Assembly: GCA_963718665.1 (NCBI GenBank)
Contig: OY970359.1
Coordinates: 608,001-672,000 of the forward strand
DNA length: 64,000 nucleotides
Direction: 5' to 3'
Source: an uncultured Phycisphaerales bacterium
GTDB taxonomy: Bacteria > Planctomycetota > Phycisphaerae > Sedimentisphaerales > Anaerobacaceae
This document shows, in pieces, positions 52,145-64,000 of this stretch. The notes under the pieces are model-generated. The model worked only from the letters and a program-made list of their open reading frames with translations. It was not told where the DNA came from and made no database searches. Positions within the stretch are counted from its first letter, which is position 1. Every line of letters starts with the position of its first letter. The position numbers and the translations under genes were made by a program.

Positions 52145-54865
52145 ATGATAATGGCGAACAAAATGGTGTATTTCTTCGGCGGGGGCTCGGGCGAAGGAAA
52201 TGCGAAAATGAAGAACCTCCTCGGCGGCAAAGGAGCTAATCTTGCCGAAATGGCCAACCTCGGCGTGCCCGTCCCGCCGGGCTTCACAATCACTACAGAG
52301 GTCTGCACTCATTACTATCAGAACAAAAAATCCTATCCCAAGGGCCTCAAGGAAAAGGTCGATGAGGCGATGCGCAGAATCGAAAAAATTATGGGCAAAA
52401 AATTCGGCGACCCCGCCGACCCTCTTCTGATGTCCGTCCGTTCCGGCGCCCGCAAATCCATGCCGGGAATGATGGAAACTGTTTTGAACGTCGGACTAAC
52501 TACACAGACAATACCAGGATTGATTGCCAAGAGCGGCAATGAGCGGTTTGTGTATGACGCGTATCGGCGGCTGATAATGATGTACTCGGACGTCGTGATG
52601 GAAAAGGCGGCGGGCATTGAGCCAAAGGATGACGAGGGGATTCGCAAACAGCTCGAAAAGATAATGGACCACCTCAAAGAACAAAAGGGCTACAAGACCG
52701 ATACGGATATGGACGCCATAGACCTCAAGAACCTCTGCGAACTGTTCAAGAGCAGGGTCAGAGAAGTATTGGGCAAGGATTTCCCTGATGACCCCAACGC
52801 TCAGCTCTGGGGCGGCATCACAGCGGTGTTCGCTTCGTGGAACGGCAGACGGGCCATCAGCTATCGCAAAATCGAAGGCATCCCCGATGAATGGGGCACA
52901 GCAGTAAACGTGCAAACAATGGTGTTTGGCAATATGGGCGAGAAATCAGCCACCGGCGTCGCGTTCACACGCAACCCCGGCAACGGCGAAAACTATTTCT
53001 ACGGCGAATACTTAGTCAATGCCCAGGGCGAAGACGTCGTCGCGGGCACCAGAACGCCGGCCCCGGTCAATGAGGATTCAAAGAGCGACCACAACAAGGA
53101 GCTGGTATCGCTCGAAAAGGGAATGCCAAAGATTTACAAGGAACTATACGCCACTCAGAAGAAACTCGAAAAGCATTACCGCGATATGCTGGATATCGAA
53201 TTCACAATCGAAAGCGAGCGGTTCTGGATGCTTCAGTGCCGAGTGGGCAAACGCAATGGCCCGGCGGCGGTGCGTATGGCTGTCGATATGGTAAAAGAAA
53301 AGCTCATCAAGAAGGAAGAGGCGGTAACTCGCGTTACGCCGGACCAGTTGGATGAGCTTCTGCACCCGATTATTGACCCCAAGGCGGAAAAGGCAAGCAA
53401 GATAATAGGAAAAGGATTGCCGGCGGGGCCGGGCGGCGCAGTCGGACAGATTGTGTTCTCCGCTCAAACAGCCGTTGACTGGAAAAAGTCGGGCAAGGAC
53501 GTCCTTTTAGTCCGTGAAGAAACAAACCCCGAAGACGTCGAAGGTATGAGAGCCGCACAGGGCATCCTGACTGCACGCGGCGGTATGACCTCACACGCGG
53601 CGCTGGTCGCTCGCGGCTGGGGCAAATGCTGCGTCGTCGGATGCAGCGCAATCGAAGTCGATTACGGCAAAAAAGAATTGCACATCGCAGGCAAAATCCT
53701 TAAGGAAGGCGACTGGCTCACGCTCAACGGCACAAAGGGCGCGGTTTACGAAGGCAAACTGCCGATGCTCGACGACACCGCGGAAAACGTCCTGCTCAAC
53801 AGCTTCCTCAAGATTTGCGACAGTATCAGGAAACTCGGCGTGCGCACCAACGCGGATACGCCCGAAGATGCTCAGAAGGCAAAACAGCTCGGCGCAGAAG
53901 GTATCGGCCTATTCAGGACCGAGCATATGTTCTACGGCAAAGGTTCCGATGAGCCGTTGTTTATCCTGCGTAAGATGATTGTCTCGAAGAACAAAGCGGA
54001 AAGACAAAAGGCGCTGGATGAGCTGTTCCCGTATGTTAAGAAAGCGATTAAGGGGACACTCGCGGCGATGGATAATCTGCCCGTTGTGATTCGTCTGCTC
54101 GACCCGCCTCTTCACGAGTTTGTGCCTGAGGACCAGGAAAAGCGAGAGCAATTGGCTAAAGAGCTGAATATATCGCTTGAGGACCTCGCAAAGAGAGCCG
54201 AGGCGATTCACGAAACCAACCCGATGATGGGACATCGCGGCGTGCGATTAGGCATCACGTATCCGGAAGTCAGCGAAATGCAGATTCGGGCGATTTTCGA
54301 GTCGGCAGCGGAACTGATTAAGGAAGGCAAAAAGCCCTATCCGGAGATTATGATTCCCGTTGTCTGCGACGTGAAGGAATTGAAGAACCAGCTCGATATG
54401 GCAAGAGCAATTTACAAACAGGTCGTCGCCAGGATGGGCGTAAAGAAGATTCGCCACAAATTAGGCACGATGATTGAAATACCGAGAGCGGCCTTAGTCG
54501 CCAACCAAATCGCCACAGAAGCGGAATTCTTCTCATTCGGCACCAACGACCTTACGCAGATGACGTTTGGTTTCTCACGCGACGACATCGGCGGATTCGT
54601 GCCTGATTATCTCAAGCAGGGAATACTGCCGGGAGACCCCTTCCAGAGTATCGACCAAATCGGCGTCGGCGAACTGATTAAGATTGCTATCGAGCGAGGC
54701 AGAAAGACACGCAAAGACCTCGAAATCGGCATCTGCGGCGAACACGGCGGAGACCCCGCAAGCGTCGAGTTCTGCCACAAGGTCAAGATGAATTACGTGT
54801 CCTGCTCGCCGTTCAGGGTACCAATCGCAAGATTGGCGGCGGCACAGGCGGTGGTAAACGAGTAA
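52145..54865 (+). CDS. ppdK: Pyruvate, phosphate dikinase
   Basis: LGGKGANLAEM, SMPGMM, GGMTSHAA, FSFGTNDLTQ, CGEHGG. Confidence 0.98.
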   Translation: MIMANKMVYFFGGGSGEGNAKMKNLLGGKGANLAEMANLGVPVPPGFTITTEVCTHYYQNKKSYPKGLKEKVDEAMRRIEKIMGKKFGDPADPLLMSVRSGARKSMPGMMETVLNVGLTTQTIPGLIAKSGNERFVYDAYRRLIMMYSDVVMEKAAGIEPKDDEGIRKQLEKIMDHLKEQKGYKTDTDMDAIDLKNLCELFKSRVREVLGKDFPDDPNAQLWGGITAVFASWNGRRAISYRKIEGIPDEWGTAVNVQTMVFGNMGEKSATGVAFTRNPGNGENYFYGEYLVNAQGEDVVAGTRTPAPVNEDSKSDHNKELVSLEKGMPKIYKELYATQKKLEKHYRDMLDIEFTIESERFWMLQCRVGKRNGPAAVRMAVDMVKEKLIKKEEAVTRVTPDQLDELLHPIIDPKAEKASKIIGKGLPAGPGGAVGQIVFSAQTAVDWKKSGKDVLLVREETNPEDVEGMRAAQGILTARGGMTSHAALVARGWGKCCVVGCSAIEVDYGKKELHIAGKILKEGDWLTLNGTKGAVYEGKLPMLDDTAENVLLNSFLKICDSIRKLGVRTNADTPEDAQKAKQLGAEGIGLFRTEHMFYGKGSDEPLFILRKMIVSKNKAERQKALDELFPYVKKAIKGTLAAMDNLPVVIRLLDPPLHEFVPEDQEKREQLAKELNISLEDLAKRAEAIHETNPMMGHRGVRLGITYPEVSEMQIRAIFESAAELIKEGKKPYPEIMIPVVCDVKELKNQLDMARAIYKQVVARMGVKKIRHKLGTMIEIPRAALVANQIATEAEFFSFGTNDLTQMTFGFSRDDIGGFVPDYLKQGILPGDPFQSIDQIGVGELIKIAIERGRKTRKDLEIGICGEHGGDPASVEFCHKVKMNYVSCSPFRVPIARLAAAQAVVNE

Positions 54866-55754: not shown

Positions 55755-56624
55755 ATGAAGAAAAAACTGATTGACTACTCTCAATATATAGTGAGACATG
55801 CAGCGCCTTTAGTAGAAGAAATGAATGGTCGAGGGGGGAGGTATGCCGATTGTGTCGAAGATAATAGAAAGGCCGAGGAATACAATAAAAAACATTATTA
55901 TGGGAAACGAGGCTTCTGTCCATTTTGCAGACATAATATACCAAAAATTAATGACGGATTACATAAAGGAATAAGCTATTATGATGTCTGGTCATGTCCA
56001 ATTTGTGGCTGGTGGGAAATTGAAAAACAAGAGTTTGGGATTCCAGCTGCAGGCCATCCAACCACGCAAGAATATAATTTTCAAGCAATAGTCAGAGCTT
56101 TTGATGTATCCGATAGGGAGCTACCCGAAGATATTCTTTTAACACATTTAAGAAAAGAGGCATCCATATTATATGACATACACCCTCGTAAGATGGAGGA
56201 AATAGTAAAATATGTATTTAGCAGTTATTATTCATGTGATGTAATACACTGTGGTAAATCACATGATGGTGGAGTTGACCTTATTATGATTGATTCTGAC
56301 GAGCCAACATTGATTCAGGTAAAGCGAAGACAAAATCCGGATTACATTGAATCAGTTTCTGCGATACGCGAATTCTTAGGTGCATTATTAATAAACAGAT
56401 CAAGGAAAGGTATTTTTGTTTCAACAACCGACCATTACTCCAAAGAGACTATTAAAACCATAAATATGATCCTAAAGGAAGATGTTGTCACGAGATTTGA
56501 GTTGATAGATTTCAAGAAATTTACGGCAATATTGAACATTATAAGAACTGAAAAAGATGAACCTATGGGTAAAACTAATAGAGTAGCTCTGCCTAACAAC
56601 CGGTTCAAGAAGGAATGGCATTAA
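55755..56624 (+). CDS. Mrr-like restriction endonuclease with N-terminal zinc ribbon
   Basis: CPFC..CPICGWW; P..MEE.V, DGGVD, IQVKR, IREFLGA, KGIFVST; AT-rich. Confidence 0.85.
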   Translation: MKKKLIDYSQYIVRHAAPLVEEMNGRGGRYADCVEDNRKAEEYNKKHYYGKRGFCPFCRHNIPKINDGLHKGISYYDVWSCPICGWWEIEKQEFGIPAAGHPTTQEYNFQAIVRAFDVSDRELPEDILLTHLRKEASILYDIHPRKMEEIVKYVFSSYYSCDVIHCGKSHDGGVDLIMIDSDEPTLIQVKRRQNPDYIESVSAIREFLGALLINRSRKGIFVSTTDHYSKETIKTINMILKEDVVTRFELIDFKKFTAILNIIRTEKDEPMGKTNRVALPNNRFKKEWH

Positions 56625-58248: not shown

Positions 58249-58896
58249 ATGAAGATTCAATTTGCGATTAATGTGCCGAGGCGGTTAGAGGTTGCGCTTG
58301 TATGGGTGGTTTTGAACTATCGCCGATTGCGCTACGGCGAGGCGTTCAGAATCATACCGCTTACAAAAGGATTGCGAGCAATCGTATCGCCTGAAGATTA
58401 CGACCGGCTTGCCGCGTGCAACTGGTGCGCGTCCAAATGCCGACATACAATTTATGCCCAGCGAACAGCCAGAACAACATCTGGCCCAAAAAGGCAGCAT
58501 AACGTGCGAATGCATCGCGAAGTGTTAGGCATCACCGATGACAGGTTCGTTGACCATCAGAATCACAACGGCCTCGACAACCGCCGCTCAAACCTGCGAA
58601 TTACCACACCCGCCCAGAATGGCTGGAATAGAAATAAAACCGCCTCCTCGTGTTCCTCTCGTTTCAAAGGTGTGTGTTGGTCAAGAAAGATGGTCAAATG
58701 GCATGCCCAAATCAAAGAAAACGGCAGACAGACAACTATCGGCTATTTTGACGATGAGGAATCGGCTGCGAGGGCCTATGACGCCAAGGCAAAGGAGCTT
58801 TATGGCCAATATGCTGCGTTGAATTTTCCGGGGCCGGAAAAAGACCCATTGGCCAAATGGAGCAATGCGATTTGCTACGGGAAATTCACAGGATAG
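58249..58896 (+). CDS. HNH endonuclease with AP2 DNA-binding domain
   Basis: MHR, VDH.NHNGLDNRRSNLR..T..QN..N, SRFKGV, IGYF.DE..AARAYD. Confidence 0.9.
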   Translation: MKIQFAINVPRRLEVALVWVVLNYRRLRYGEAFRIIPLTKGLRAIVSPEDYDRLAACNWCASKCRHTIYAQRTARTTSGPKRQHNVRMHREVLGITDDRFVDHQNHNGLDNRRSNLRITTPAQNGWNRNKTASSCSSRFKGVCWSRKMVKWHAQIKENGRQTTIGYFDDEESAARAYDAKAKELYGQYAALNFPGPEKDPLAKWSNAICYGKFTG

Positions 58897-59003: not shown

Positions 59004-59078
59004 GGTGAGAGTAGCTCAGTTGGATAGAGCATCGGATTGTGGTTCCGAGGGTCGCGGGTTCGAATCCCGTCTTTCACC
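59004..59078 (+). tRNA. tRNA-His (GTG)
   Basis: Cloverleaf with G-1, acceptor GTGAGAG/CTTTCAC, anticodon arm TCGGA-TTGTGGT-TCCGA, GTTCGAATC; CCA not encoded. Confidence 0.96.
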
Positions 59079-59167
59079 CTTTCCCGGTTATCAACAAGGG
59101 ATGAGAACACGCCTGACGCGAAGCGGCAGAGCAGGGTTCGACACGCCGAAGGCGGGCCTCGTTTCGA

Positions 59168-59188
59168 GAATCCCGTCTTTCACCCTTT
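59168..59188 (+). repeat. Direct repeat of the tRNA-His 3' end
   Basis: GAATCCCGTCTTTCACCCTTT also at 59062-59082. Confidence 0.9.
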
Positions 59189-59494
59189 TTTTGGGGTTAG
59201 ATATTGAACGCAGGATATGGCGGATTAACACCAATGACGAATGTTAAACGCCTTCCATCCACAATGCCCGAATCAGCGGTGAATTCATTAATATGACGGC
59301 TGCCAAAAAACCAATAGACAGCAACAGGGGGAACAGTAACACATCTTTGAATACTACATAAATCTTTGACATGGCAAACACTCCTTTTTGTTACAATTGC
59401 CGAACTTATCCCTTATCTGCGTCTTTCCTGACACAGGTATTACTTGCGCGAGCCGGTTGGATTCCAGGCCCGATATTTCCGCGACCAAATAATA

Positions 59495-60130
59495 CTGGGC
59501 CGAACAGGTTTGTTAACCTGACCGGCCCGGCGACTTTCACACTGTTATCTTAAAGCACAATCGCACAAACGATTATGCGAACAGCCATGCTGGGTTCGCC
59601 TGTTTTTGCAAACAAGACCTAACCCAGCGAAGAAAAGGGAGAGAAACTAATTTACCCGCCTCCACTACTACTTTACCCGCCTCCACTACCGTATTACTAT
59701 CGCAAACCTGAGGTCTGCGTTTTTGGACTGCTGGATTTGTGTAGAGAGTCCAAATCCAGCGAAGAAGGGGAGAGAGAATGAGTTTATTACCTTGTCGCGG
59801 CCGATTGACCGCGTATGGTTACGAGCTGGATTTGAGAAGAGAGAGAGTATCAAATCCAGCGAAGAAGGGAGAGAGAATATGTGTAGAATTTGTTATCTTA
59901 ATCACCCCGCTCTAAACAGAGCAGGATGTCGATATTCGTGCCGGGTTCGTTTACCTCGCTTTAGATTATATAATCTGTCTGGGGTAACAAACCCAGCTTG
60001 GGGGGAGAAAACTCCTCGTGAGCTATCTAATCACGGCGAGGGCCGTGCGTGCTCTCAGAAAGATGATGGCTTTTCAAAACCCCGACAGGTCTCGGCGAAA
60101 TCGCCAAGCCGCAGCCGGATAAGCCATCGT
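59495..60130 (-). ncRNA. Candidate multi-module structured ncRNA array (four repeated units)
   Basis: Four GC(T/C)GG(A/G)TT...AA(T/C)CCAGC stems, each flanked by a purine tract on + (CU-rich on -) and a second hairpin. Strand is inferred from the upstream gene. Confidence 0.6.
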
Positions 60131-60133
60131 AAA

Positions 60134-60562
60134 TCAGCCTTCTCTCATTAGCTCCTCAACATTACCAGCAGAAAATAATATTGCCTTGATAGCAACGCCA
60201 TCCTGGATACCGAGCAGATTGGCAACCGTGTCTCTTAAGACATTGTCGGTTGCGTCCTCAGCAAGGACCGCAGAGACGCCCAAAGACCTGGCAGCGATTT
60301 CCTGAGCTTTGCTGCCTGGCTTTACGATGGCAATCGTAGGGATATAGGGTTTAGCCGCTTTGAAAGATTTGAGAAATCTTCCATCGGGCATATCATCCAA
60401 ATCCCATCTGCTGATTACGCTGTTCACCTTTTCATTTTTCAAAGAACGAGCAGCCTCACGACCTGACTGCATTTTTATCAACCTTATCGGCAGTTCCCTT
60501 AACACTTCACTTCTGCCGCCTAAGCCCACTGTTAAAACTGTCGCCTGAACAAGAACTACCAT
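60134..60562 (-). CDS. Atypical single-domain receiver (CheY-like) protein
   Basis: SG.EA...L......VI..WDL.DM..G..L pattern, PTI, A..LGV..VL; canonical acidic residues look altered. Confidence 0.65.
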   Translation of the reverse strand: MVVLVQATVLTVGLGGRSEVLRELPIRLIKMQSGREAARSLKNEKVNSVISRWDLDDMPDGRFLKSFKAAKPYIPTIAIVKPGSKAQEIAARSLGVSAVLAEDATDNVLRDTVANLLGIQDGVAIKAILFSAGNVEELMREG

Positions 60563-60633
60563 CTACGTTCCTAAGTACTCTGCGGCTTATTCGCCTACGG
60601 GTGTTTTTATTTTTTTTCTTCGCTAATATATAA

Positions 60634-60649
60634 AGCGAATGGCGTGCCA
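60634..60649 (-). promoter_or_regulatory. Sigma54 (-24/-12) promoter
   Basis: TGGCACGCCATTCGCT (GG-N10-GC) on the minus strand, about 70 bp upstream of 60562. Confidence 0.7.
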
Positions 60650-60748: not shown

Positions 60749-60786
60749 CGACCATATTGGTCATAGATAGGCGACAATTATTGTCG
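60749..60786. promoter_or_regulatory. Tandem palindromes, candidate enhancer-binding-protein sites
   Basis: GACCA-TAT-TGGTC and CGACAA-TTA-TTGTCG, 100-140 bp upstream of the sigma54 element. Confidence 0.6.
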
Positions 60787-61221
60787 TAAGTCATTGCGTT
60801 AGAATGGGACTTCGATGATATGACCACTTTGGCCGGGGGCGACCGAAATGGAACATCTTCCTCACCCCCCTGCTTGCCACGGTGTAGCCATAGGCGAAGC
60901 CGAATCCGCTATATTCTATACGCTGCTTGCCACGGCGAAGTTGAATAACGAAGCCGGGTATGCTGCCTGCTATGCAGGATATTATTGACGAAAGACAAAA
61001 ACTGGGGGATTGGGGGAATCTATTTCCGATTGCAGATTGTAGATTTGAAAATGGGTCCCCTGTTCTTGGCCAAGTAAGCAGCACTCGGGGATGACGCTTC
61101 GCGCCAATTGCGGATTTGGGATGAGGAGGATGCGGTTTTTAGATGTTGAAAAATGATACCGCTTGCGGTATTGTGGGGGCGGGAAGTTGGGGAGAATTGA
61201 AGTCGATGGAGTTATGTAAGG

Positions 61222-64000
61222 ATGGCGAAAACAAAAGCAAATGAGCGGGAATTTGCGGGGCAGGTAATCTCGTGGATAAAAGAGCAGTTGAAAGAAGGCG
61301 GATTGCCTTTTGAGAATGCCACGAATGACTCAAGTTTATATGGATTGCCACGAGTAAAATTCCCTGATGTTTTACTGACACAGGATTTTGAAGGTTTGCG
61401 GCCATTTTGCGGATGGGAATTGAAGACACCGAAAACGGATGCACGTGACAAAATACTTTTGAAGGACGCCGTCAAGAAGGCACAGACGATTGAGGCAAAG
61501 AACTTTGTTACGTGGAATATGCAAACGGCAATAATCTGGAAAACACCCGAGAAAATAAGGGCGACTGTCAACGAGGACGACAAGATTCGAGAATACGATA
61601 CTGATACCCAGATTACGAAAGTCGAAGATATCAGGGACAGACAGAAGGCGGATTGTCTCAGAGAGAGGTGTCGGGAAATAGTATCTGACCTTGGGCGACT
61701 TTACGAGGAAGAGAAGATAAATATACCAGTAGCAGACGCAACGGTTTTCGTTGGAATGGTTGGAGCTGCTTCTGAGAAAATGGCAAGTTCGCTTTTAGCG
61801 GATATAAACAGGGCAAGAGCGAACAGGGAATTTGCCAAGAGATTAAATGCCTGGGCGGCCAAGCAGGGAGTTTCTAAATACGACCAGGATTACTGGCAGA
61901 CACTTTCACAACAGATATCATACAAGATAATAGGCAAAATTCTGTTTTACCTAACCCTTCGACGACAAAACCAAAATCTTCAGAAAATGGCCCTGAATGG
62001 CGACAACTACAAGGCCGCAATGAAACGTATGCGTGCAATGTTTCAGTCGGCATTAGAAGTTGATTATCAGGCAATATTTGAGTCGGACATTACGGACGAA
62101 ATAGAGCTTTCAAGAGATACGGCAGAGGTGGTAATTGACCTTACGGACAAACTAACCCACTGGAGTTTCGAGCAAGTGCCGTTAGACGTGGTGGGAAACG
62201 TTTTGGAAAAGTTAGTGCCGGAGGATGCACGACACAGTTTAGGTCAATATTTTACACCTGACCGGTTATCAGATTTGGTAATTGCGTTTTGCGTAAACAA
62301 TGGCGATGCGAATGTGATGGACCCGACATGCGGAACTGGGACATTTTTAATTCGCAGTTATAATCGGTTGCGGCATTTGGGACTAAAAAGGCAGGCACAT
62401 CACGAATTGCTCAATCAAATTTGGGGGTTTGACATAGCGGGATTTCCGGCGGAATTAGCAACTATAAACCTTTGCAGACAGGATTTGGGCGATTATCTGA
62501 ATTTTCCACGAGTTTTATCAAAGGACTTTTTTGATGTGTCGCCGGGTGAGGAATTTGAATTTCCACCTGCAAAGAAAACGATAAAAGCCGGGGAACGAAT
62601 ACGCGTCAAAATTCCGAAATTTGATGCGTTGGTGGGAAATTTCCCGTTTATCAGGCAGGAACTTATTGAAAAGGTTGAACCGGGATATAAAGACCATCTT
62701 GCAAGAGTGTTGTATAAGAATTGGGGATTGGAATATCTAGATTTATTTCCTAACGTGAAGCAAGAGGGGCAAGGGGAACAGGAGGTAGAACTTGCCCTAT
62801 CGGGACAGGCGGATATTTACGCGTATATGTTTTACCACGCGGCGGCGCACCTTAAATTGGGCGGACGGATGGGGTTTATCACGAGCAATTCCTGGTTAGA
62901 TGTTGCATACGGGTATGAATTGCAGAAGTTTTTCCTTTCGAAGTTTAAATTAGTGGGGGTTTTTGAAAGCAGGTGCGAGCCGTGGTTTGAACAGTCGGCA
63001 GTAAATACTGTTTTCACGATTCTGGAAAGATGCAACGATAAAGAGGAGATAGAAAAGAATCCGGTTTACTTCGTTAAAATGAAAAAACCTTTGTCGCAAC
63101 TTTTCCCGCAGGACGCCTTGACTGATACACAGGCAAGATGGGACGCGATAACAAGGTTTGCGGAAAAGATAGAAGAACTGGGTATTAGAGCAGAGAACAT
63201 TGGAAAGACCGGGTTTGGCAAGAGTAAAGGGTTTAAAAGGTTTGAAAAGATAAACGCCGAATACGTAAAACAGCCGGAGATTGTGTCATACGAAGATGAT
63301 GAAGTTAGGGTGAGGATAATCAAGCAAAAGGGTTTAAAGGAAGAAGTTGAGGCGACAGAGCAGACAGTAAAGTGGGGACAATATCTGCGCGGGCCGGATA
63401 TTTACTTTGAAGTATTGGAGAAGTGCGCAGACAAACTTATACCACTCGACCAAATTGCAGATATTCGTTTTGGGATCAAGACAGGTATAAACGAATTTTT
63501 CTATTTAGATGAAGACCAGGTTAAGCATTGGGGTATTGAAAAGAAATTTTTGCAACCTGTTATGAAATCGCCGAAAGAATGTGATGGAATTTTACTAAAG
63601 CGGACGGATTTGAAACTCTTTGCGTTTGTATGCAATGAAGATAAATCAGAGTTAAAGGGAACGGGTGCGCTGAAATATATCAAATGGGGTGAGCAACAAA
63701 AAACGGAGGAAGGAAGGCCGTGGCCGGATGTGGAAAGCGTAAAGGGAAGGGGAAATTGGTATGAGTTACTGAAAAGAGAGCCGGGGAAATTGTTGCTTCC
63801 AATGATTACAGGGGACAGTTTGCGATGTATCGTAAATGAATGCAATGCTTATGTGGACCACAATCTATTTGAGGTTATTTCGGAAGACAAGGATATTCTC
63901 GCGGCGCTGGGATTATACTTAAATAGCACGGCAGCGTTTCTTAGCAGAGAGTTGACGGGACGGGCTAATCTGGGGGATGGCGCCTTGAAGGTTGAGGGTA
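61222..64000 (+). CDS. Type IIG-like fused restriction endonuclease / N6-adenine methyltransferase (3' end outside the window; not in the ORF track)
   Basis: MAKTKANEREF...FPDV...WELK (PD-ExK), GQYFTP, DPTCGTGTFL, VGNFPFIRQE, ITSNSWL; these segments and the last line of the window are in the same frame. Confidence 0.9.
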   Translation, partial: MAKTKANEREFAGQVISWIKEQLKEGGLPFENATNDSSLYGLPRVKFPDVLLTQDFEGLRPFCGWELKTPKTDARDKILLKDAVKKAQTIEAKNFVTWNMQTAIIWKTPEKIRATVNEDDKIREYDTDTQITKVEDIRDRQKADCLRERCREIVSDLGRLYEEEKINIPVADATVFVGMVGAASEKMASSLLADINRARANREFAKRLNAWAAKQGVSKYDQDYWQTLSQQISYKIIGKILFYLTLRRQNQNLQKMALNGDNYKAAMKRMRAMFQSALEVDYQAIFESDITDEIELSRDTAEVVIDLTDKLTHWSFEQVPLDVVGNVLEKLVPEDARHSLGQYFTPDRLSDLVIAFCVNNGDANVMDPTCGTGTFLIRSYNRLRHLGLKRQAHHELLNQIWGFDIAGFPAELATINLCRQDLGDYLNFPRVLSKDFFDVSPGEEFEFPPAKKTIKAGERIRVKIPKFDALVGNFPFIRQELIEKVEPGYKDHLARVLYKNWGLEYLDLFPNVKQEGQGEQEVELALSGQADIYAYMFYHAAAHLKLGGRMGFITSNSWLDVAYGYELQKFFLSKFKLVGVFESRCEPWFEQSAVNTVFTILERCNDKEEIEKNPVYFVKMKKPLSQLFPQDALTDTQARWDAITRFAEKIEELGIRAENIGKTGFGKSKGFKRFEKINAEYVKQPEIVSYEDDEVRVRIIKQKGLKEEVEATEQTVKWGQYLRGPDIYFEVLEKCADKLIPLDQIADIRFGIKTGINEFFYLDEDQVKHWGIEKKFLQPVMKSPKECDGILLKRTDLKLFAFVCNEDKSELKGTGALKYIKWGEQQKTEEGRPWPDVESVKGRGNWYELLKREPGKLLLPMITGDSLRCIVNECNAYVDHNLFEVISEDKDILAALGLYLNSTAAFLSRELTGRANLGDGALKVEG

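Follow-up and report, generated by a model that had tools for sequence, protein, structure and literature searches.

Organization of the locus

The DNA considered here, referred to below as the window, is a stretch of 64,000 nucleotides from the 2.6 Mb genome of an uncultured Phycisphaerales bacterium (genome G000). On its minus strand, a sigma54 promoter precedes a small receiver-like gene, behind which lies a structured non-coding tandem array (59495-60130) that has no match in Rfam; this arrangement, proposed in the first-pass annotation, stands. The promoter carries −24/−12 boxes of the form TGGCAC..TTCGC (60635-60649; predicted start near 60623). Two palindromic sites of the GACC-N5-GGTC type upstream are likely enhancers (UAS): a proximal one, recognised from sequence and kin (60750-60762, ∼113 nt upstream of the −24 box), and a distal one (60822-60834), at least one such site being found in most kin loci. 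The gene (60134-60562) encodes P0001, a CheY-like pseudo-receiver of 142 aa, recognised from Pfam and PDB matches and an alignment, with an arginine at the phospho-acceptor aspartate position. Its close homologues are assigned by their sources to Sedimentisphaerales, the planctomycete order from which the window most likely derives.

The array is a single locus in G000, with no second copy. On the minus strand, each module is laid out as a C/U seed of ∼20 nt, a first hairpin (P1), an A-rich linker of ∼10 nt, a second hairpin (P2) and an AU-rich tail. Module 1 (59895-60017; P1 59940-59997, P2 59903-59928) scores 37.6 bits with covariance model R1. Modules 2 (59788-59880; seed 59861-59879, P1 59825-59860, P2 59796-59813), 3 (59693-59780; seed 59761-59779, P1 59730-59760, P2 59701-59719) and 4 (59554-59648; seed 59629-59646, P1 59589-59628, P2 59555-59578, recognised also by its duplex) score 64.9, 73.5 and 46.2 bits, respectively, all three having belonged to the training set of the model. 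The seeds differ from one another in sequence; their unpaired probability in the fold is 0.97-0.98 in modules 2-4 and 0.55 in module 1, where the seed is partly self-paired.

Most of what the first-pass annotation had read from the letters is borne out. Its four main stems are the P1 helices, at the coordinates it gave, and its second hairpins are the P2 helices; the purine tracts, the repeat of TGTTATCTTAA at 59543 and 59891, the 18-nt duplication at 59651/59672 and the further stems at 60065-60128 and 59496-59528 are all present. The loops, described there as unrelated, proved otherwise: modules 2 and 3 have ACUCUCU in common, a loop that is frequent in the genus and is itself, as a second such stretch, partly complementary to the target site discussed below.

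Several elements surround the modules, all on the minus strand. The long hairpin at 60065-60128, a linker and an orphan P2 (60022-60056) look like a degenerate, seedless fifth module (module 0, 60022-60128), judging from the fold and from kin comparison. A GGAGG-containing spacer (59651-59689), in which the 18-mer is duplicated and which has 1-4 copies in genus kin, pairs with the seed of module 4 in the MFE fold and may mask it in the precursor. The AU-rich linker after P2 (59543-59553, and also 59891-59901) is a candidate endonuclease site. The array ends with a hairpin (59496-59528) that is likely a terminator or attenuator and whose homologue in distant kin has an anti-loop (K-) and a U tract. 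Beyond it, a hydrophobic small ORF of 42 aa with a Shine-Dalgarno (SD) sequence (59244-59372) occurs in 10 of the 20 loci examined, the window's included; it has no NCBIfam match, and its best Pfam E-value is 0.066. In other kin this membrane-type ORF is replaced by PEP-CTERM or unrelated genes.

Further along the window are a tRNA-His gene (59005-59078) whose 3′ end recurs as a 21-bp direct repeat (59062-59082 and 59168-59188), resembling an integration-site remnant, an HNH-AP2 gene (58249-58896), an Mrr-type endonuclease gene (55755-56624) and a pyruvate phosphate dikinase-like gene recognised by sequence (52145-54865).

A family of structured RNA modules

The region 59495-60130 contains five perfect stems of at least 8 bp, whereas 500 dinucleotide shuffles average 0.38 such stems and never exceed 3; the folding z-score of the region is −8.1 on the minus strand versus −4.3 on the plus strand (20 shuffles each). 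Among relatives, a parser yielded 150 modules, reduced to 51 compact non-redundant ones, of which 47 were aligned. In these 47, changes on both sides of the helix occur at 11 of 15 pairs, a level reached in none of 500 shuffles. Pairing is 95% for the true register and at most 42% in slid controls, the former figure being partly circular because modules were selected as hairpins. On the gene strand, P1 stems contain 118 G-U and 10 A-C combinations, an excess that fixes the minus strand and indicates RNA. The array is one of repeated two-hairpin modules with compensatory changes and a minus-strand G-U bias, and the modules are almost certainly functional RNA.

The same observations bear on the idea that the array is a DNA-level repeat offering recombination or binding sites, or that the coding frame 59723-60151 accounts for it. 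Palindromic arms, and the att-like duplication at the nearby tRNA-His gene, would suit a repeat of that kind. Against it stand the strand-biased G-U pairs, the variable loop lengths and the confinement to one locus in G000; as for the frame, which the first-pass annotation had named as a possible refutation of its own reading, the homologous frame is at most 59 codons long in 18 of 19 relatives. This explanation is largely refuted and barely credible.

The four modules of the window belong to an RNA family unmatched in Rfam. Within the window, the Rfam scan that had been suggested matches only the neighbouring tRNA, and no relevant match appears in 11 loci, arrays of the CUCCUCCUCC type included. 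By covariance model, modules occur in 83 of 151 genomes of the order Sedimentisphaerales and in none of 131 genomes from the other orders of the class. Among 61 relatives the model detects modules in 41, missing a divergent array in G043 that is visible by eye. The receiver gene is present in 41 of 61 related genomes, with modules downstream or flanking in the loci inspected; in G298, outside the class, the receiver gene is present and the covariance model finds no modules. Arrays contain 2-7 modules (39 loci).

Promoter, pseudo-receiver and orphan activator

In 40 of 42 homologous loci, a sigma54 box is found no more than 400 nt from the receiver gene. A palindromic site upstream is rare among the intergenic sigma54-like sites of G000, being present at 2 of 17. 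A scan for sigma70 promoters and terminators performed near chance.

Canonical receiver domains have a conserved phospho-acceptor aspartate and an acidic pocket. That aspartate is not conserved in the P0001 family: among 33 homologues the corresponding column, position 52, varies (R, K, N, T, F, H, L, A, C), while E88, A91, R92, G95 and V99 are invariant. P0001 falls below the cut-off of Pfam PF00072 (E 0.0014) and resembles the receivers of CheY, NtrC1 and LuxO among its PDB matches.

Just beyond the window, at G000:C1:674716-675789, lies the gene of a sigma54 activator, P0002 (357 aa), which consists of an AAA+ domain and an HTH and has no receiver. It scores 281 against TIGR02915 (cut-off 503) and 244 against the LuxO model (cut-off 800). 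In G000 it is located 6.2 kb upstream of the array, past an inserted block with a large DNA methyltransferase-like gene. The latter (1165 aa, restriction-modification by its motifs) occupies 61222-64000 and beyond, separating the activator from the promoter that it putatively controls; the gene content of this gap differs from kin to kin. In 61 genomes, receiver and activator are both present in 40, both absent in 17 and discordant in 4. In 27 of 44 loci the activator is encoded upstream on the same strand at a distance of at most 10 kb, and in 15 of at most 700 nt. The sigma54 site and the palindromic upstream sites are conserved, and the locus co-occurs with, and often adjoins, this one orphan activator. 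Although G000 has three other strong sigma54 activators, P0002 likely drives the sigma54 promoter of the array.

Complementarity between seeds and the activator leader

The activator leader has a conserved sigma70-type promoter, followed directly by a purine tract that constitutes both a toehold and the 5′ arm of a hairpin. The first ∼25 nt of the leader, at the predicted +1 to +25 and ∼110 nt before the start codon, are the best-supported predicted target of the seeds. The first-pass annotation had seen in them an anti-Shine-Dalgarno element; their best partner, and the one that co-varies, is instead this 5′-terminal site, and a weaker pairing with purine-rich SD sequences, those of PEP-CTERM genes included, is possible.

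In G000, 16 of 17 nt of the module 4 seed can pair with the leader, and 15-16 nt of modules 2 and 3 around a bulge. For modules 2-4 the leader site ranks first among 830 promoter-like 5′ windows, by at least 4.6 kcal/mol, and surpasses all 2125 start-codon windows; module 1 has no leader match in this genome, 72 of the 2125 windows being equal or better. Genome-wide, the site ranks 6, 30 and 45 by raw energy. Once target folding is charged it ranks only 68-119 of ∼147, so binding would need strand displacement or a co-transcriptional window. With patterns designed after the target site had been seen, the seed-derived pattern is found in G000 solely on the opposite strand of the array and in the activator leader; the same holds in G047 and G041, which have a different seed, and one or two extra sites occur in G045 and G038. 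A 13-nt perfect complement of the first-module seed, unannotated and common to these last two genomes (L135/L136; G045:C84, G038:C6), is a candidate second target.

The best seed beats composition-matched shuffled seeds (at most 10 of 200) in 31 of 36 genomes, a test in which the −10 box was hand-set in four and from which G001, G002, G017, G019, G043 and three paralogous loci were left out. The five training genomes that miss the cut (G007, G031, G033, G051 and G060) are not rescued by a whole-leader window. Cognate seed-leader pairs outperform non-cognate ones among 11 lineage representatives (permutation p=0.0008). Both held-out loci match. In 20 new genomes, a strict promoter rule gives 4 passes out of 10, with 10 uncalled; with the promoter anchor relaxed afterwards, 9 of 15 pass and 5 are uncalled (p=0.003), the value inside family f1 alone being p=0.09. 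Kin genomes in all these tests are not independent. Across lineages, seed and predicted leader site are shown to change in step, the held-out support being weaker, and on this comparative evidence the modules most probably pair with the activator leader.

Folding of 16 leaders revealed no consistent change in the accessibility of the ribosome-binding site (RBS) upon occupancy of the site, and an RBS switch triggered by seed binding was not seen. A short ORF starting within the target site was discarded, its start codon not being conserved across leaders. Paralogous loci (L037, L041, L043 and L122) contain an activator, a pseudo-receiver and an array amid PEP-CTERM genes, with a loop type of their own and extra loop motifs 3′ of the terminal hairpin. 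Their seeds match the SD region of the activator in two of four: an activator-region match exists in G015b and G047b, and none in G046b and L122.

Downstream genes and other possible targets

A complete PEP-CTERM tail is encoded downstream in 13 of 42 loci, one further regex match being spurious. In G000, the start regions of 19 PEP-CTERM genes out-pair 231 purine- and SD-matched controls for modules 2, 3 and 4 (p 0.001, 0.001 and 0.017). Compared with shuffled seeds the signal is weak: 5, 14, 150 and 35 of 200 for modules 2, 3, 4 and 1. The start regions of HNH-AP2 genes do not exceed shuffled seeds, module 1 excepted. A loose pattern finds 17 HNH-AP2 look-alikes with purine-rich SDs in G000, which suggests a multicopy mobile family.

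The advantage of PEP-CTERM start regions over matched controls is what a set of cuckoo-like anti-SD sRNAs would produce, acting on many targets and mainly repressing mRNAs with long purine-rich SDs, some of them of PEP-CTERM genes, with the activator match secondary. The CUCCUCCUCC seeds of several families and the 13-nt site common to G045 and G038 fit this proposal, which is compatible with pairing at the leader. As the primary role of the modules it is improbable: the signal against shuffled seeds is weak, and the seed varies between lineages and tracks the activator leader, though the 16S anti-SD of G000 is standard.

Modules might alternatively act in cis, as processing or stability elements that mark cleavage in sigma54/PEP-CTERM operons, or titrate away a protein that binds pyrimidines. 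In G024 (L098 1088-2797, G024:C8), single modules stand directly before three consecutive PEP-CTERM genes; this, the PEP-CTERM tails downstream in 13/42 loci and the freely varying copy number would all be expected of such elements. The lineage-matched complementarity to a distant leader is left unexplained. Sponges such as CsrB/RsmZ carry repeated GGA in their hairpin loops; inspection of the 47 aligned modules found no GGA in sense-strand loops, despite two CsrA genes in G000. Support was not found for the protein sponge that the first-pass annotation had envisaged, and the cis/titration explanation as a whole is very improbable. In G026 (L100 1959-2583, G026:C22), a second array, again of four modules, follows a sigma54 site and neighbours the genes of an activator with a receiver and of an Hpt-like protein.

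Expression and RNA machinery

Small shares of the stretch are contained in 19 RNA runs. Assembled RNA-library contigs from related strains cover 59203-60603 (four runs, peat and soil), and one contig links module 1 with the receiver gene; such contigs speak to presence only, strand, ends, processing and a single transcript being beyond them. The segment 60620-61800 has no RNA contig in the four runs, which strain divergence could explain, and is not counted as evidence.

As regards the machinery, G000 has RNase III. Its RNase E/G is split over two frames (G000:C1:1467992-1468800), through an assembly error or a true frameshift. RNase J was not found over the cut-off in G000, nor was Hfq (PF17209) in this 94.6% complete genome, the control being detected in 5/14.

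A proposed self-limiting circuit

The reading towards which we lean is that of a self-limiting response: the orphan activator would turn on the sigma54 operon, the modules would lower the activator mRNA by base-pairing at its 5′ end, and the activator protein would be held back by the pseudo-receiver. The pseudo-receiver gene and the array would be transcribed from the sigma54 promoter as one polycistronic sRNA precursor, cut in the AU-rich linkers into units of ∼90-120 nt. The unpaired seed would first bind the purine toehold, single-stranded at predicted leader positions +1 to +12, then displace the 5′ strand of the leader hairpin to give a duplex of 15-17 bp, a possible substrate of RNase III. 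How strongly this brake acts would depend on copy number (2-7). The output would be the downstream cargo, often PEP-CTERM surface proteins, together with weaker targets in SD regions.

The second, protein-level brake would be the binding of the pseudo-receiver to the AAA+ domain of the activator. The predicted complex of the two scores 0.88, compared with 0.68 for the best control. It lies exactly at the pass mark, which 116 of 157 solved pairs attain, as do 2 of 215 mismatched ones. All contacts (100%) recur between runs, the partner pLDDT is at least 87, and the lowest-error contacts include the family-invariant E88 and R92. Since receiver-AAA+ structures (NtrC1, LuxO) have already been solved, the pass may reflect likeness to them. 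The model thus gives borderline support to binding of the AAA+ domain by the pseudo-receiver.

If the modules do pair with the leader, the sign of the regulation is fairly likely negative. The opposite sign would arise if the modules capped and stabilised the 5′ end of the activator mRNA, in the manner of FasX-ska, creating a positive feedback and a bistable switch checked by the pseudo-receiver. The position of the site, at the predicted +1 to +25 and far (∼110 nt) from the start codon, the absence of RBS occlusion in folding, and the precedent of 5′-end pairing that raises mRNA half-life, as given in the available text of PMC7509114, are in line with stabilisation. Weighing against it are the length of the duplex (15-17 bp), which suits the RNase III present in G000, and the Qrr-LuxO precedent, which is negative according to the accessible part of PMC2632942. 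The rationale of protection from a 5′-exonuclease is weaker because RNase J was not found over the cut-off, and stabilisation is on balance rather unlikely.

Should the self-limiting circuit hold, planctomycetes would gain a defined sRNA circuit with a named target, predicted through natural co-evolution of seed and target. It would exemplify mRNA 5′-end pairing that is tuned by copy number and apparently does without Hfq. The circuit also hints at how a sensor-less sigma54 activator is restrained, by a split-off pseudo-receiver and by RNA, and its parts are short enough to be rebuilt with reporters in a laboratory host.

Relation to known systems

Qrr sRNAs are dependent on Hfq, which was not found in G000 (94.6% complete). 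The five Qrr sRNAs of Vibrio (Qrr1-5) are redundant, are controlled by the sigma54 activator LuxO and pair with the 5′ UTR of luxO mRNA, forming a negative feedback (PMC2632942, in the part available). Likewise, the array has a predicted sigma54 promoter (−24/−12 site in 40/42 loci) with putative enhancer sites, and by computation its modules are complementary to the 5′ UTR of their own activator (31/36 and 9/15 genomes). Unlike Qrr genes, the copies form one tandem array behind a protein gene, the site they would bind is the predicted 5′ terminus of that mRNA, and no Rfam Qrr match exists in the window. P0002 also departs from LuxO: it has no receiver, a separate pseudo-receiver existing instead, and is not of the phosphorylated response regulator type.

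In Alphaproteobacteria, the cuckoo RNAs CcsR1-4 with CcaF1 comprise a small protein gene, tandem two-hairpin RNAs with a C/U-rich seed, which RNase E cuts into monomers, and a terminal hairpin, as far as the available portions of PMC4615179 and PMC8034643 describe them. The analogy drawn in the first-pass annotation holds for the layout (small protein gene, tandem copies, end hairpin) and fails for the placement of CCUCCUCCC, which in these sources lies in hairpin loops, whereas the modules have a single-stranded, lineage-variable seed 5′ of P1. From the same portions, the cuckoo promoter depends on RpoH rather than sigma54, the upstream protein is a DUF1127 RNA-binding protein rather than the receiver fold of P0001, and the phylum differs. 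The cuckoo model of Rfam has no match in the window or in 11 loci. The array is therefore akin to Qrr-LuxO in logic and to CcsR in layout, and fails the defining tests of both.

Other systems share single traits. NfeR1-NtrBC of Sinorhizobium meliloti is an sRNA feedback loop with an NtrC-type system; in the available text of PMC10746234, NfeR1 is a single gene, is under NtrC repression and targets the ntrB translation start by pairing, and the array differs in each respect. FasX of Streptococcus pyogenes pairs, like the modules, at an mRNA 5′ end (that of ska), where it raises half-life; unlike them, it is single, stabilising and directed at a target other than its own activator, according to the part of the review PMC7509114 that is available. 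In the PEP-CTERM box/PrsR regulon, a sigma54 promoter and enhancer lie upstream of PEP-CTERM genes; no RNA array is described in the accessible text of PMC1569441, and P0002, without a receiver, is below the TIGR02915 cut-off. A search of the freely available literature, main texts only, found no description of the array; PMC11266412 contains no sRNA or sigma terms, and the main text of PMC5737381 does not contain the word ‘Planctomycetes’.

A possible loop-loop layer among distant relatives

The loop of the terminal hairpin complements a motif of the P1 loops in 12 of 45 loci, and a U tract usually follows this hairpin. In the 11 such loci with model matches, 38 of 39 modules have the motif. 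Three types of loop occur, module and terminal hairpin changing together. Of the changes at the nine inner positions, 25 preserve pairing as G-U and 11 are transversions, with no pair-breaking transition, compared with 1083 G-U-keeping and 1357 pair-breaking transitions among chance matches in G000; tandem copies in these counts are not independent, and modules of family f6 have a fixed mismatch. In family f5 the activator leader bears the motif in a hairpin, and in each of G056, G046 and G040 the exact motif has only three genomic occurrences, in the leader, the first hairpin and the terminal hairpin. The layer recurs in all five new f5 genomes. In all 12 new f1 genomes the terminal anti-loop and the leader motif are absent, and in the window's genus the layer is missing from modules, leader and terminal loop.

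These comparisons allow a tentative, doubtful proposal for an order-wide module, in which one sigma54 transcript would supply both an RNA array that can expand and a receiver that cannot be phosphorylated, the two acting on one orphan activator; ancestrally, the loop motif of every module and of the leader would dock on the loop of the terminal terminator hairpin. If so, one docking site would be common to many selectors, and either read-through into surface-protein genes or array processing would be coupled to the level of activator mRNA, without Hfq. In G052, where receiver gene and array were not found, the loop motif lies right after a promoter-like site, before a gene for a secreted protein (L134; G052:C58 ∼87850).
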